A DNA stretch of 64,000 nucleotides, taken from Escherichia phage RB32. This document shows, piece after piece, positions 14,839-39,263 of this stretch (the stretch's first letter is position 1; every line of letters starts with the position of its first letter). The DNA is taken from the sequence record NC_008515.1; one strand, given 5' to 3'. The position numbers were made by a program, and so were the translations under genes. Under the pieces are notes generated by a model, which worked only from the letters and a program-made list of their open reading frames with translations, ran no database searches and was not told the DNA's origin.

Positions 14839-15096
14839 TTAACCACCGACACCAGGTGTCGGTGTAACAGTCCAAAGACCTTCATTAGCAGTGATCCATC
14901 CAGTACGCTGATTTTCTTCATATACTGTAGAATATGCTGCTTTTTCAGAAGGGAATGTCTGATAATGAGCACCAGAAATTTTGTGAACATCAGAATAAAG
15001 AGGGAAAGCTACAGAAATTTCTTTACCCTGAATTGTACCACCATCAACTGCTTGGTCAAATGTTTTGATATTAACATAACCGCGAGTACTAGCCAT
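14839..15096 (-). CDS. soc: small outer capsid protein Soc
   Basis: MASTRGYVNIKTF...VAFPLYSDVHKISGAHYQTFPSEKAAYSTVYEENQRT, near-identical to T4 Soc as recalled; 85 aa. Confidence 0.9.
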   Translation of the reverse strand: MASTRGYVNIKTFDQAVDGGTIQGKEISVAFPLYSDVHKISGAHYQTFPSEKAAYSTVYEENQRTGWITANEGLWTVTPTPGVGG

Positions 15097-15164
15097 GTAA
15101 TTCTCCTTTTATTTAAATTACATGATTATTTATAATAAATTCTCGCGGCTTTTAAGACGAACTG

Positions 15165-15683
15165 TTAATAACCTCGGTCTTGACGAGCAAAGTTTTCAGC
15201 ATTTTTCAGATAATAAAGTTTAAAGATTTCTTCTGCTGTAAGACCAAGACCTTGGAACATGTTCAGAACGAAATGGAGAATATCAATCATTTCAAATTTA
15301 ATTTCCAATTGGTCTTGTGGAGACAAATCAGTAATCAGAGTTTCACGGCGTTCACCATGCTGCGACTTCCAAGGCTTCCATACAGCAGATGCATCTTTTT
15401 CACCATTGCTCATACCACCAAGAGAAGTCAGAAGTTCGCGGAATTCATCATCAATATAATCTTTCTGATTGCGTAGCCAATCAACAACTTCACCTGCAGT
15501 AGCCAAGTCATCAGGATGACGATTATATTCAGGTTTATCTTTAGCTAAACGAACCTGCAAAGATTTCTGCATATCAAGCATAACCTGCAGCGGGTCTTTT
15601 TCATCACCGAGAATATCCCAATATTCATTTTGAGCTTTATCAGCGCCTTCAATCAGTTGTGAACATTCGTTAAAGTAAGCCAT
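15165..15683 (-). CDS. 56: dCTPase/dUTPase (dCTP pyrophosphatase, MazG-like)
   Basis: ORF track 15165..15776; conserved gp56 sequence begins at the internal Met (MAYFNECSQLIEGADKAQNEYWDILG) at 15683, giving 172 aa. Confidence 0.85.
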   Translation of the reverse strand: MAYFNECSQLIEGADKAQNEYWDILGDEKDPLQVMLDMQKSLQVRLAKDKPEYNRHPDDLATAGEVVDWLRNQKDYIDDEFRELLTSLGGMSNGEKDASAVWKPWKSQHGERRETLITDLSPQDQLEIKFEMIDILHFVLNMFQGLGLTAEEIFKLYYLKNAENFARQDRGY

Positions 15684-15754
15684 TATTTTTCCTTTCAATT
15701 CATGGGTTAGTAGATTAATTATACAATAAATATATAAAGCAATAAGGAGGACAT

Positions 15755-15955
15755 ATGGTACAAAAATTAATGGCACTTGTTAATGCCATCAAAGGTAATA
15801 AAAAGCGTATAGCTTTTACTATTTCTGTTATGGTAGGAATTTTACTCTGGAACTTTATTTTATCACCAATTGCAATTGCGCATGGTGTTAATATTCCAGT
15901 AGTTACTCTTGATACATTTGTAGATTTAGCATTTGCTTTAGTTGGGTTAATTTAA
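15755..15955 (+). CDS. small hydrophobic membrane protein on the opposite strand
   Basis: 66-aa ORF preceded by AAGGAGG 5 nt before ATG; two predicted TM segments; stop overlaps the gp61 stop. Confidence 0.5.
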   Translation: MVQKLMALVNAIKGNKKRIAFTISVMVGILLWNFILSPIAIAHGVNIPVVTLDTFVDLAFALVGLI

Positions 15956-16980
15956 ATCTTAGCATATTTAGATAACCGCATTTTAGCCATTAACCCCTGG
16001 GCAATATTATTTTTCATATATTCCATAATTTGTTCAGGGGTTGCACCTTCCTTTCTAATCATATCATTAACATCTTTTGATTTCCAGGGAGATTTATCCC
16101 AAAACATAACCCTTTCTCCTGCATCAACTAATTTAGTCATCCGTTTAATAGTGTCAGGGTGACGAGGTTCATTATCTAAGACCCACACTCGTCTATCTTT
16201 AAATGGAACAATTTCTAGGTCTAATTGACCACCCGTAATAGCTATACCATTTTCAATGAAAAGGGAATCGATAGGTCCTTCTAGAACATATACATCGCCA
16301 TCTTTAACTCGTTCGACTCCATAGATTTTTGTTGCCTCAGGATAAGCTTTGATGGTGATATATTTTTGAGGAGCATCTTTCTTTAATGCACGCCCTTGAA
16401 ACGACTCGGCTTTTCCGTTAGCATTATAAATTGGAATAACAAGACGAGGCTCAGGTATTTCCTTTTTATATGTTCCCGGTGCTATGCTATTAACTAATTT
16501 AGGCCATTCGGTTGTAAACCAAAGATATTTCCATTTATCCTTTGGAATACAACGAGCTTTTACATATTTTATAATTGCATGGTCTTCCGCCAGTTTATCT
16601 AATCTAACGCATGACGGAAGAGATTTAATTATTTTCTTCTCAGGTTGTTTAGGAAGTTCTTTAGGTTTTTCTACTGGACGACTTTTACCTTTTTCTTTTC
16701 TTATTTCAAAGATATACTCACGATATAAATCAGGTTCAAACTCCTTTAAATATATTCCGATTGGTGCATGATAGTTACAGTTATAGCAATGAATATTTCC
16801 TTCATTATTATCACCATAATACCATCCACGAGCTTTATTCTGGTCGGTTTTTGAATCTCCACAAACAGGGCATCTAAACCGTAATTTAAAAGTTGAACTA
16901 TTATTTACTTGTGTGAATTTAGGTAAATGAGCTAATGCACGATACGCAAATTCATTATCAATCCAAGGTATTGATGACAT
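15952..16980 (-). CDS. 61: DNA primase
   Basis: 342-aa ORF, N-terminal zinc ribbon CPVCGDS...CYNCNYH; length equals T4 gp61. Confidence 0.9.
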   Translation of the reverse strand: MSSIPWIDNEFAYRALAHLPKFTQVNNSSTFKLRFRCPVCGDSKTDQNKARGWYYGDNNEGNIHCYNCNYHAPIGIYLKEFEPDLYREYIFEIRKEKGKSRPVEKPKELPKQPEKKIIKSLPSCVRLDKLAEDHAIIKYVKARCIPKDKWKYLWFTTEWPKLVNSIAPGTYKKEIPEPRLVIPIYNANGKAESFQGRALKKDAPQKYITIKAYPEATKIYGVERVKDGDVYVLEGPIDSLFIENGIAITGGQLDLEIVPFKDRRVWVLDNEPRHPDTIKRMTKLVDAGERVMFWDKSPWKSKDVNDMIRKEGATPEQIMEYMKNNIAQGLMAKMRLSKYAKI

Positions 16981-17147: not shown

Positions 17148-17192
17148 ATTAACCTCTATTCATAAAAGCATTAAAAATTTGGTCATCAATAG
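17145..17192. repeat. 48-bp direct repeat, copy A (3' end of the 118-aa gene plus RBS/ATG of the next gene)
   Basis: catattaacctctattcataaaagcattaaaaatttggtcatcaatag; copy B at 17503..17550 differs at one position. Confidence 0.8.
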
Positions 17193-17505
17193 ATGGCGCA
17201 GTAATATTTTCTGCATCATTTAGCAAATCATTAATTTCATCAGATAGCATAACACATGTACCTTTATTTCCTGTAATTGTTACTGCGCAATTACGAACGT
17301 TTTCTTTATTAAATTTTAGGTTAATATTTTCGTAATGAAAATCCTTTAATGCTGAATATATTTTTAAAATAAAATTGTCTTTTACTACAATAAACCCAAC
17401 CTCACTATTAAAACGTGGTTCATGGAAACTGTAATAAACCTTTTCATCTATAAAATCGTATGAAATTTTTTCCATTTTTAAATATGAAAATTCAGAACTA
17501 TACAT
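17149..17505 (-). CDS. hypothetical protein; C-terminal 14 aa shared with the upstream gene
   Basis: 118-aa ORF ending SIDDQIFNAFMNRG; flanked by the two 48-bp repeat copies. Confidence 0.55.
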   Translation of the reverse strand: MYSSEFSYLKMEKISYDFIDEKVYYSFHEPRFNSEVGFIVVKDNFILKIYSALKDFHYENINLKFNKENVRNCAVTITGNKGTCVMLSDEINDLLNDAENITAPSIDDQIFNAFMNRG

Positions 17506-17550
17506 ATTAACCTTTATTCATAAAAGCATTAAAAATTTGGTCATCAATAG
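17503..17550. repeat. 48-bp direct repeat, copy B
   Basis: catattaacctttattcataaaagcattaaaaatttggtcatcaatag. Confidence 0.8.
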
Positions 17551-18127
17551 AAACATTTACTTTAGACTGTTTTTCTGATGGTAATTCATATCCACATATT
17601 ACAATTTTGTGATCAATATCAAAATACACAGAAGCAATATGATTAATGATGTTTTCAGTAAAGTCTAAATCAACATCAATATCTTTTTGACCACAGCCCA
17701 AAGGATAAATAATGCGAGTAATTCGATTATCTTTAACAAATATTCCACCGACATACTCTGTGCTGCGTTTAAAGTCTACACGCCGACGAAATGAAAAATA
17801 TTCAGGCTCTCTATGAGCTCGGCTCATAGGACACAACGAGTAACTAGAATAAGAGATGTCAAATCCTACGCCTTCGATATGAGCCAAAGTGTCATGATTA
17901 AACCAATTATAATCGTACGCCAAATCCATTAGATTATAATATGTAAAAGGCACCGGATTAACATCATTAGTCACAAGCATGTAATTAGCAACTGCTATAA
18001 TTTCATTGTTTTTAACGAATACAAACCGTGATTGATGCGAATGACCTGGACCCGCGTTTTCACGATTAATGATATAACACTGAGACTTTTTATATTTGTA
18101 AGAATCATACTTATACATTTGAAACAT
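17507..18127 (-). CDS. hypothetical protein (61.2-like position)
   Basis: 206-aa ORF ending VSIDDQIFNAFMNKG. Confidence 0.55.
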   Translation of the reverse strand: MFQMYKYDSYKYKKSQCYIINRENAGPGHSHQSRFVFVKNNEIIAVANYMLVTNDVNPVPFTYYNLMDLAYDYNWFNHDTLAHIEGVGFDISYSSYSLCPMSRAHREPEYFSFRRRVDFKRSTEYVGGIFVKDNRITRIIYPLGCGQKDIDVDLDFTENIINHIASVYFDIDHKIVICGYELPSEKQSKVNVSIDDQIFNAFMNKG

Positions 18128-22018: not shown

Positions 22019-22867
22019 TTAATCAACTACTATTGGATGAATAGCATTAAACTTATGAAATGCTTCTGATTTTTCTTTACGCGAAACACACATGCGAAGA
22101 ACCTTTAATGGCTCGTCTTCTTCACCCAACGATTTTCGTTTTTCAATATTCGATGTTTTCCAACGAGCTTGCTCTGGAAACTCTCTATTGATTTGCTCAA
22201 GCGCTCTATTATGTTTAGAATTACTACGAATTGAACTGCACCCGCCAGGAGCTTGTGCTTTTCCAGATACAACTAGATATTTGAACAAGGCCAAATGCGG
22301 ATAACCTTGATTAATTAAATTGAGAAATGCATACATATCTTCACATAAATCAATTTTTCCATACCCAATTTGTTCTGTCGTAAGTTTTCCGAGGTCATAC
22401 CATGTATTCGTGAATCCATATGAGTTTTCACGATAATTACCCCAAGATGAAGTAATTTTAAAAATTGGTAGACGAGCATGACCGTGATAATACCCGCAAT
22501 CCATGGCATCTTCAACATATTGAATCAATTCATAGAACTGTTCACGGGTTAATTGATTGACTTTATCTACACAGCGACGATCATCTCTTTTTCGCATTGA
22601 ACTCATACGAATAGTAGTATCATCGTCAATCATCCAGATTCGTTGACCTGCATACATATCAGTAATTGCTTTACGAGTACCGGCAATTCCATTAACATCA
22701 TCAGGAATAGTTACAATTTTAGCTTTAGACCCATAGGCATCATAATAAGCTTTTTCTTCATGTTCACGCACTACAATATGGGGTTCATAATCAGTCGGAA
22801 ACATATCAAGGGCAGAAACTGCCCCTACACGTTGATAGCTCGGAATTACGAATTGAATCATTTCCAC
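22019..22867 (-). CDS. DNA glycosyltransferase candidate (DxD-type), occupying the slot of T4 beta-glucosyltransferase
   Basis: 282-aa ORF with QRIWMIDDDTTIR (DxD-like); located between uvsX and 42; shorter than T4 beta-gt (351 aa). Confidence 0.5.
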   Translation of the reverse strand: MEMIQFVIPSYQRVGAVSALDMFPTDYEPHIVVREHEEKAYYDAYGSKAKIVTIPDDVNGIAGTRKAITDMYAGQRIWMIDDDTTIRMSSMRKRDDRRCVDKVNQLTREQFYELIQYVEDAMDCGYYHGHARLPIFKITSSWGNYRENSYGFTNTWYDLGKLTTEQIGYGKIDLCEDMYAFLNLINQGYPHLALFKYLVVSGKAQAPGGCSSIRSNSKHNRALEQINREFPEQARWKTSNIEKRKSLGEEDEPLKVLRMCVSRKEKSEAFHKFNAIHPIVVD

Positions 22868-30899: not shown

Positions 30900-31616
30900 A
30901 TGAATTATAAACTAATTTATGAAAAGTTAATCTCTAATGCTAAATCTCGAAAACTTGATTGCTATACTGAATCTCATCACATTATACCACGCTGTTTAAA
31001 TGGCAGCGATGATGCTTCAAACTTAGTAGATTTAACACCAGAAGAGCACTATGTAGCTCATCAACTTTTAGTAAAAATTTATCCTTCTGAACCAAAATTA
31101 GTCTATGCTGCTAACATGATGACAGTTTCTACGAAATACGCTAAACGCAACAATAAAACTTTCGGTTGGATTCGTCGTAAACTCTGGGAATTAGAAAAGA
31201 ATAAAGAATTCTCCCAGGAGACACGAAAGAAAATGTCTGATGCAGTAGCTAATAAAGCAAGACTAACTTGTCCTCATTGCGGTAAGTCTGGATTAAGCGG
31301 GAATATGAATCGTTGGCATTTTGATAACTGCCCAAATCACCCTAATCCTAAAGTTAGACCACCAATGTCTAAAGAACACAGAAATAATATCTCAAACGGG
31401 CTTAAAGCAATCGTTCTTGAAGAAACATCCTGCGAATTCTGCGGAATGATAGGCAAGAAATGCGTTATCGCAGCGCATAGAAATTTCTGCAAGAAAAATC
31501 CAAATGGACGCAAGAAAACTGAAAAGACTGGTACTTGCGTCCATTGCGGTAAAGTTACCACTTTCGGAAATTTATCAAGGTGGCATAATGATAACTGTAA
31601 ATATAAACCTAGCTAA
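30900..31616 (+). CDS. HNH homing endonuclease (free-standing, mob-like) with three C-terminal zinc-finger-like repeats
   Basis: 238-aa ORF; HNH motif ESHHIIPRCLNGSDDASNLVDLTPEEHYVAHQ; repeats CPHCGK...RWHFDNC, CEFCGM...HRNFC, CVHCGK...RWHNDNC; AGGA RBS. Confidence 0.8.
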   Translation: MNYKLIYEKLISNAKSRKLDCYTESHHIIPRCLNGSDDASNLVDLTPEEHYVAHQLLVKIYPSEPKLVYAANMMTVSTKYAKRNNKTFGWIRRKLWELEKNKEFSQETRKKMSDAVANKARLTCPHCGKSGLSGNMNRWHFDNCPNHPNPKVRPPMSKEHRNNISNGLKAIVLEETSCEFCGMIGKKCVIAAHRNFCKKNPNGRKKTEKTGTCVHCGKVTTFGNLSRWHNDNCKYKPS

Positions 31617-39122: not shown

Positions 39123-39152
39123 ATCAATTCCTCAAAGGCAATTCATGTGTTA

Positions 39153-39182
39153 ATAATACCGCAGTTTGAGCTCGTTGTAAAC
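39153..39182 (-). promoter_or_regulatory. early promoter (-35 GTTTACA, -10 TATTAT)
   Basis: minus strand GTTTACAacgagctcaaactgcggTATTAT. Confidence 0.45.
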
Positions 39183-39263
39183 AACTTTGCGAAAATTATT
39201 TTAGGGAATGATAAGAAAGGAACGATAGCTTAGAATGGTAATATACAGAATGTGAGAAAGAAA

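Follow-up and report, generated by a model that had tools for sequence, protein, structure and literature searches.

The dam-less gene 56-61 interval of an RB33-type T-even phage is a common haplotype that retains a small conserved gene

Introduction

In phage T4 the gene order at this locus is soc-segF-56-dam-61 (NC_000866), as a preliminary description of the DNA studied here correctly stated. That description reported that both segF and dam are missing, with 68 bp separating soc from 56 and 268 bp separating 56 from 61, and that the latter gap holds a single plus-strand reading frame for a small membrane protein. The locus raises two questions: what a 56-61 interval without dam represents among T4 relatives, and whether the small reading frame is a gene with a role there.

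The sequence analysed, referred to throughout as the window, is a stretch of 64,000 nucleotides. A 2.2-kb stretch (2201 bp) around genes 56 and 61 is 100% identical to Enterobacteria phage RB33 (KM607001.1), and an 8.2-kb locus from that record is found exactly in the window, where the window coordinate equals the record coordinate minus 119. RB33 belongs to the species Tequatrovirus RB32. Its genome has already been published as a genome announcement (PMC4293622).

Layout of the locus

When coordinates are re-derived from the sequence, both reported gap lengths are matched exactly, the 56-61 gap extending from 15684 to 15951. The genes and gaps of the locus are:

14839-15096, minus strand: soc, small outer capsid protein, 85 aa (Pfam Soc PF16855, E 2.7e-44; annotated soc in RB33)
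15097-15164: soc-56 gap of 68 bp, an empty segF insertion site with no segF-like ORF; T4 has segF there
15165-15683, minus strand: gene 56, dCTPase/dUTPase, 172 aa (Pfam dUTPase_2; RB33_030)
15755-15955, plus strand: gene for a 66-aa small hydrophobic protein (RB33_031; phrog_2024; examined by tblastn, dN/dS and AlphaFold)
15952-16980, minus strand: gene 61, DNA primase, 342 aa (RB33_032; 98.5% identical to T4 gp61)

The 66-aa ORF is convergent with gene 61 and overlaps it by 4 nt. In T4, soc, 56, the 66-aa plus-strand ORF and 61 have the same order and orientation as in RB33. The 56-61 interval of RB33 appears to combine a single small gene with densely packed regulatory signals for both strands. 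The window very probably carries the empty-site form of two optional T4 insertions: segF, between soc and 56; and a dam module, which in T4 lies between the gene 56 promoter and the small plus-strand gene. What is left between 56 and 61 would be a compact unit conserved across the subfamily, made up of a 71-bp divergent promoter spacer, the small gene and a hairpin.

Beyond gene 61, RB33_034 (118 aa; 17149-17505, minus strand) aligns with the Pfam family AdfA (E 8.8e-8; anti-DarT factor A) over the latter's C-terminal half, and shares a C-terminal SIDDQIFNAFMN(R/K)G with the adjacent full-length 61.2 (17507-18127, minus strand). It is a short tandem paralogue of 61.2 that is absent from T4. 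At the 61.2 position T2 has only a 118-aa gene and no full-length 61.2.

Absence of dam from the RB33 genome

The gap lengths, the ORFs and the comparison with T4 bear out the absence of dam from the 56-61 interval and of segF from the soc-56 gap. The preliminary description left room for a dam gene elsewhere in the genome, and none is found in RB33 by tblastn, motif scan, annotation or Pfam. A tblastn search with T4 Dam against record positions 120-163900, run at E values up to 100, gives a best E of only 0.99. The remaining 2.2 kb of RB33 contains just denB, one 109-aa ORF and rIIB, and likewise no dam. The RB33 record carries no methyltransferase annotation, and a Pfam scan of ten RB33 proteins that lack a named T4 counterpart gives no methyltransferase match. 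Scanning RB33 ORFs of at least 120 aa for the DPPY-type catalytic motif, [DNS]PP[YFW], places it, by comparison of coordinates with the annotation, only at the neck gene 13, at denA and in an unannotated ORF opposite pseT.

Distribution of the dam-less junction

The frequency of this arrangement was assessed with a 271-bp probe across the junction of 56 and the small ORF, a direct junction being defined as a single alignment covering at least 80% of the probe. The probe matches 501 phage records (Tequatrovirus), and 292 of them have the RB33-type direct junction. All 292 dam-less records have the same junction. A Dam of T4 type (identity of at least 90%) is encoded in 182 records. The RB33 arrangement is common to RB27, RB51, RB68, RB14, RB7 and many field isolates. 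In the RB32 group and other dam-less Tequatroviruses (among them RB27, RB68 and Ac3) the entire 2.2-kb soc-61 region is collinear with that of RB33 at 97-98% identity, and nothing of substance differs; the small ORF, a hypothetical protein in dam-less Tequatroviruses, corresponds in RB51 and RB14 to RB32ORF030w.

The dam-less state extends to other genera. In Mosigvirus ST0, and likewise in Gaprivervirus VR26 and RZ, genes 56 and 61 flank the small plus-strand ORF, dam is missing from the locus and the spacers measure 82-88 bp. More distant T4 relatives have dam homologues elsewhere on the map: that of a Klebsiella phage neighbours denB and ndd, and those of RB43 and a Krischvirus lie beside nrdC and 49. 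Since homologues sit at other map positions and many relatives have no dam at 56-61, dam is best described as an accessory, movable gene of the T4 family. Given the number of isolates without it, dam is evidently dispensable. A literature search found no direct statement on the distribution of dam among T4 relatives.

The segF site and the alleles of gene 56

The literature describes segF as the gene of a free-standing homing endonuclease, inserted between soc and 56, with gene 56 as the target (PMC2988022). In T4 the 675-bp segF lies between soc and 56 and overlaps gene 56; it is absent here, the 68-bp gap of RB33 containing no ORF for a GIY-YIG homing endonuclease of about 225 codons overlapping the end of 56. 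The absence of segF is that of an empty site. Other endonuclease genes occur nearby in relatives: a different homing endonuclease is found upstream of 56 in fPS-90, and in Gaprivervirus RZ a homing endonuclease gene lies between the small ORF and 61.

RB33 gp56 is only 74% identical to that of T4 and 71% identical to that of T2. The gp56 of a dam-carrying ZN18-like phage contig, in contrast, is 99.4% identical. One genus thus contains at least three very divergent gene 56 alleles, of RB33, T4 and T2 type (70-74% protein identity), and which allele a phage has is independent of whether it carries dam. The divergence of gp56, set against the 98.5% identity of gp61 between RB33 and T4, is consistent with a homing hotspot in which gene 56 is the target of the homing endonuclease.

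The dam module and its nuclease-like partner

The history of dam at this site can be approached through phages that retain it. In T2, ZN18-like and ESh24 phages, a gene of 186 aa (181 aa in T2) immediately precedes dam. This gene encodes a PD-(D/E)xK nuclease-like protein and is located as follows in three of the loci compared:

L011, 2341-2901, minus strand: nuclease-like gene directly upstream of dam
L024, 1876-2421, minus strand: nuclease-like gene directly upstream of dam
L023, 3440-4000, minus strand: nuclease-like gene directly upstream of dam

The partner gene is full length in 155 phage records, of about 182 dam-carrying Tequatrovirus records. Metagenomic T4-like contigs (L026-L029) carry homologues 55-63% identical to it, again immediately preceding a MethyltransfD12 gene and close to the primase gene and the convergent small ORF.

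The partner protein contains an invariant FD...EIK motif, and five of seven family members have sub-threshold matches to the Pfam DpnII endonuclease, the best at E 8.3e-5. Its predicted model has a pTM of 0.79, and a fold search of the PDB returns only generic PD-(D/E)xK nucleases, at TM scores of 0.3-0.46; a PDB sequence search with the 186-aa protein finds no match. The arrangement resembles a DpnII-type GATC restriction-modification system in that a T2-type dam (MethyltransfD12) is preceded by a D...ExK protein of PD-(D/E)xK fold. It departs from that system in that the partner is about 100 residues shorter than the DpnII profile, which it matches below the Pfam cut-off. The conserved linkage of the two genes suggests that dam and its partner form a nuclease-methylase module. 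A literature search found no direct statement on a DpnII-like partner of T2 dam.

In T4 a 780-bp dam with its own promoter separates the 56 promoter from the small ORF, along with a remnant of the 186-aa gene; RB33 has neither. The remnant lies in the spacer between T4 dam and the small ORF, which encodes residues 159-186 (the last 28 codons) of the partner gene. Its presence there indicates that T4 is a deletion derivative of the two-gene module.

The T4 deletion raises the question of whether the dam-less state of RB33 is itself derived, the RB33 lineage having once carried the dam module and lost it by deletion. This history is possible, as a tentative alternative. T4 provides a precedent, in that its residue 159-186 remnant derives from a gene that is intact in T2 and ZN18-type phages; divergent metagenomic T4-like contigs have the nuclease-dam pair at the same locus; and the near-identity of RB33 gp56 to the allele of a dam-carrying phage shows that dam-carrying and dam-less states recombine freely. 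Against loss, tblastn and blastn detect no remnant of dam or its partner in the 71-bp RB33 spacer, the spacers of Mosigvirus and Gaprivervirus are equally compact at 82-88 bp without dam, and a single junction is shared by every one of the 292 dam-less records.

By eye, the T4 module is flanked by an ATTAATT repeat. Precise excision between these repeats was considered and rejected, as the RB33 junction is not the product of such recombination.

A further possibility concerns what the RB33-type genomes are in relation to the module. If the partner cuts unmethylated GATC, the pair could act as a selfish restriction-modification or marker-exclusion module in mixed infections, and the dam-less RB33 would be its target. 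That RB33-type genomes represent the unprotected allele of a T-even nuclease-methylase polymorphism in this sense is, at present, an unlikely reading.

DNA modification and GATC content

The preliminary description anticipated that the absence of dam would change the modification state of hydroxymethylated, glucosylated DNA. The RB33 annotation includes the gene 42 dCMP hydroxymethylase, an alpha-glucosyltransferase and a beta-glucosyl-HMC-alpha-glucosyltransferase, and with these genes the picture of hmC-glucosylated DNA is reasonable. At 22019-22861 (minus strand) the window carries an annotated beta-glucosyl-HMC-alpha-glucosyltransferase of T2/T6 type and not the T4 beta-glucosyltransferase. 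The glucosylation pattern of hmC in RB33 probably differs from that of T4, judging from this gene content.

GATC is the most depleted 4-base palindrome in RB33, with observed/expected ratios of 0.30-0.46, or about threefold depletion, and 203 sites in the three stretches analysed (about 164 kb). Lack of dam as the cause of this depletion is ruled out, as the homologous region gives equal ratios of 0.33 in dam-less RB33 and 0.32 in dam-carrying T4. It is reasonable to expect that RB33 virion DNA would be without phage-directed N6-methyladenine at its approximately 200 GATC sites. Because GATC is depleted about threefold, the lack of dam should affect only these roughly 200 sites. On glucosyl-hmC DNA, digestion with DpnI or MboI is an unreliable guide to methylation at such sites.

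Minus-strand signals in the interval

A MotA-dependent middle promoter lacks a -35 element; instead, a MotA box, TGCTT(T/C)A, precedes the sigma-70 -10 element by about 11-13 bp. On the minus strand, the 71-bp spacer between gene 56 and the small ORF reads TTGCTTTA, 11 nt, TATAAT and then the gene 56 leader. The minus-strand signals of the locus are:

15735-15742, minus strand: MotA-box-like TTGCTTTA, 11 nt upstream of the -10 element (from sequence)
15718-15723, minus strand: TATAAT, -10 element of a predicted MotA-dependent middle promoter for gene 56 (from sequence)
15767-15792, minus strand: terminator-like hairpin and T-run (consensus scan; 11 pairs, tail TTTTTGTACC)
15127-15134, minus strand: late-promoter box upstream of soc, in the soc-56 gap (exact TATAAATA match)

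A MotA-type middle promoter in the spacer would point at 56 and soc. Consistent with this assignment, the fPS-90 annotation shows a predicted middle promoter on identical sequence, and the homologous place upstream of 56 in T4 is that of P(M) 16.53, which has a mot box and a -10 element. The T4 annotation describes the P(M) 16.53 transcript as the primer for the origin oriA.

The hairpin at 15767-15792 is downstream of gene 61 and falls among the opening codons of the small ORF, and fPS-90 has a terminator annotated at this place. From this site within the 5' end of the small gene it would end minus-strand transcription of the primase gene (61). The late box upstream of soc also has its counterpart in T4, where record X01416 places a putative P(L) 15.32 just upstream of soc.

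Conservation and coding status of the 66-aa gene

The preliminary description was right that a plus-strand small ORF is present; its implied restriction to the dam-less interval does not hold, since T4 and T2 carry the ORF together with dam. The T4 ORF is identical to that of RB33 at 64 of 66 residues and lies in the 309-bp dam-61 gap, and the ORF likewise coexists with dam in ZN18-like and ESh24 phages. The T4 copy (NC_000866.4, 17738-17938, plus strand) is without RefSeq annotation. In other T4-like records the ORF is annotated as a hypothetical protein, as is RB33_031, which bears the note 'dam.1'.

The ORF is widespread: tblastn detects it in 691 phage records, of which 501 show at least 80% identity and 190 less than 60%. 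Its reading frame is kept open at 65-66 codons across three genera. By the Nei-Gojobori method, dN/dS ranges over 0.12-0.22 within Tequatrovirus, and over 0.13-0.46 when RB33 is compared with Mosigvirus or Gaprivervirus, the latter range to be read with synonymous sites saturated (dS > 1). Differences fall on codon positions in the order third, first, second, with 29, 11 and 39 at the first, second and third positions in the comparison with ST0. Residues W32, N33, P38, G44, P48 and G64 are invariant, even in the 30%-identical tandem paralogue of VR26. In VR26 two tandem phrog_2024 copies, about 30% identical, lie between 56 and 61 (L016, 2995-3192 and 3201-3401, both plus strand).

The protein matches phrog_2024 over its full length (E 1.7e-31, with residues 2-66 aligned to positions 1-65 of a 65-position profile). 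This family, which carries no functional annotation, also takes in the orthologues of the other two genera and the second, tandem copy in VR26. Pfam and NCBIfam return nothing meaningful for the 66-aa protein, and a scan of 1.84 billion representative proteins gives eight matches, two of them repeat-protein artefacts, with no relatives outside T4-like phages. As no distant relatives are found, there is no function to borrow for the protein. The small ORF is a real gene, its pattern of substitution showing purifying selection.

The conservation might instead reflect other elements that the ORF overlaps, namely the gene 61 terminator, promoters or oriA sequences, with no gene involved. The terminator-like hairpin does fall within its first codons, and the ORF is missing from the T4 RefSeq annotation and has no Pfam family. 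Such elements leave unaccounted for a frame that the three genera keep open despite a dS above 1, with changes mostly at third positions and a dN/dS of 0.13-0.46; the invariance of W32, N33, P38, G44 and P48 even in the VR26 paralogue; and the conservation of the Shine-Dalgarno sequence and ATG. We consider a non-coding origin of the conservation very unlikely.

Its position where T4 has dam could also suggest that the small membrane protein replaces dam, or that another RB33 enzyme supplies adenine methylation. Only the positional coincidence noted in the preliminary description speaks for this. The ORF occurs beside dam in T4, T2, ZN18 and ESh24, its product is a 66-aa hydrophobic peptide without a catalytic motif, and no methyltransferase motif or domain is found in the rest of RB33, making a substitution for Dam scarcely credible.

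Expression signals on the plus strand

The preliminary description also reported a consensus AAGGAGG ribosome-binding site and a near-consensus late-promoter-like box upstream of the ORF, and both are present:

15744-15750, plus strand: AAGGAGG, Shine-Dalgarno sequence of the small gene, separated from the ATG by 4 nt (from sequence)
15725-15732, plus strand: late-promoter-like box AATAAATA, 22 nt upstream of the ATG, matching the T4 late box TATAAATA at 7 of 8 positions

All small-ORF relatives compared, in three genera, have AAGGAGG or AAGGAG. In 11 of 11 loci from the three genera, the ATG is preceded at 16-22 nt by an NATAAATA box. Exact TATAAATA is not enriched in the AT-rich window, with 6 occurrences against 11 expected; for this reason the case for a late promoter rests on the conserved position of the box and not on the motif.

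Among the T4 late promoters listed, 32 of 50 match TATAAATA exactly and 9 of 50 have A at -13, the commonest variant (PMC2988020). Relative to these promoters, which depend on gp55, gp33 and gp45 and have their box at -13 to -6 ahead of a short AT-rich leader, the RB33 box has the recognised A-at--13 variant and a short leader with a Shine-Dalgarno sequence. The -13 position is G in T4's own copy of the box, C in Gaprivervirus and A in RB33. All early and middle transcripts of T4 run counterclockwise (PMC2988020). With the box, this rule indicates that a plus-strand small gene in the early region should be a late gene. The small gene is predicted to be transcribed late, and a AATAAATA late promoter with a strong Shine-Dalgarno sequence would drive it away from 56. 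For T4, the literature search turned up no direct statement on a transcript, or on a late promoter, in the dam-61 gap.

In the stretches of the window whose annotation was covered (11.8-64 kb), the small ORF is joined on the plus strand by just two annotated CDSs. One, at 30900-31616, is a putative intron-like homing endonuclease between 45.2 and 46; the other, at 39147-39233, is the 28-aa 55.7.

Late plus-strand transcription could act mainly as antisense against gene 61, lowering primase late in infection, with the peptide secondary. The convergence of the two genes and their 4-nt overlap would suit such a role, and a consensus scan of 15100-16100 gave no plus-strand terminator-like site downstream of the ORF. 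An antisense function, however, leaves the protein-level purifying selection unexplained, and RZ keeps the ORF although a homing endonuclease gene separates it from gene 61. A mainly antisense role is judged improbable.

Topology and possible function of the 66-aa protein

Hydropathy analysis of the 66-aa protein identifies three regions: a basic N-terminal segment, with K/R at positions 4, 13 and 16-18; one clear transmembrane span at approximately 19-42; and a second hydrophobic stretch at 45-66 that contains P48, D53 and D57. The AlphaFold model (pLDDT 79.8) has helices at 2-12, 16-42 (27 residues) and 52-63 (12 residues). The protein had been described as having two transmembrane segments. 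One is clear; the second span is not, its modelled helix being only 12 residues long and the stretch containing D53 and D57.

The model and hydropathy profile suggest a small inner-membrane protein with a cytoplasmic N-terminus and one long transmembrane helix. The short acidic-hydrophobic C-terminal helix (52-63) would lie outside or at the interface, and a hairpin, two-pass topology is a conceivable alternative.

One UniRef entry, a 63-aa member of phrog_2024, is labelled 'Holin'. Holins trigger lysis from the membrane, and their genes usually share a lysis cassette with that of the endolysin. The label has no visible support: RB33 has e (lysozyme) and t (holin) at a distance from the 56-61 interval in which this gene sits, and the 66-aa protein matches no holin Pfam family. 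A late accessory membrane function, for example in lysis timing or exclusion, is put forward with low confidence.

Discussion

The locus without dam and segF is real but ordinary, an already-known majority haplotype in a published genome. The significance implied for it in the preliminary description is not sustained: the dam-less interval is the majority state, the small ORF is found in dam-carrying phages as well, segF is a known optional gene and the genome was already annotated. RB33 falls in the majority of T4 relatives that lack segF and, as their gene content suggests, their own GATC adenine methylation. Absence of the two genes is a known kind of accessory-gene polymorphism and matters little for the window.

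Of wider use to phage biologists is that the T4 RefSeq record omits a small gene, predicted to be late, that is under purifying selection across three genera. Its product, as a late membrane protein of 66 aa, could have a real role in the late membrane programme.

The dam module bears on a different question. Were its partner to cut unmethylated GATC, T-even Dam, long without a clear role, would gain a function. That T-even dam is usually paired with a nuclease-fold gene lost from T4 suggests that T4 is a poor model for the purpose of Dam.
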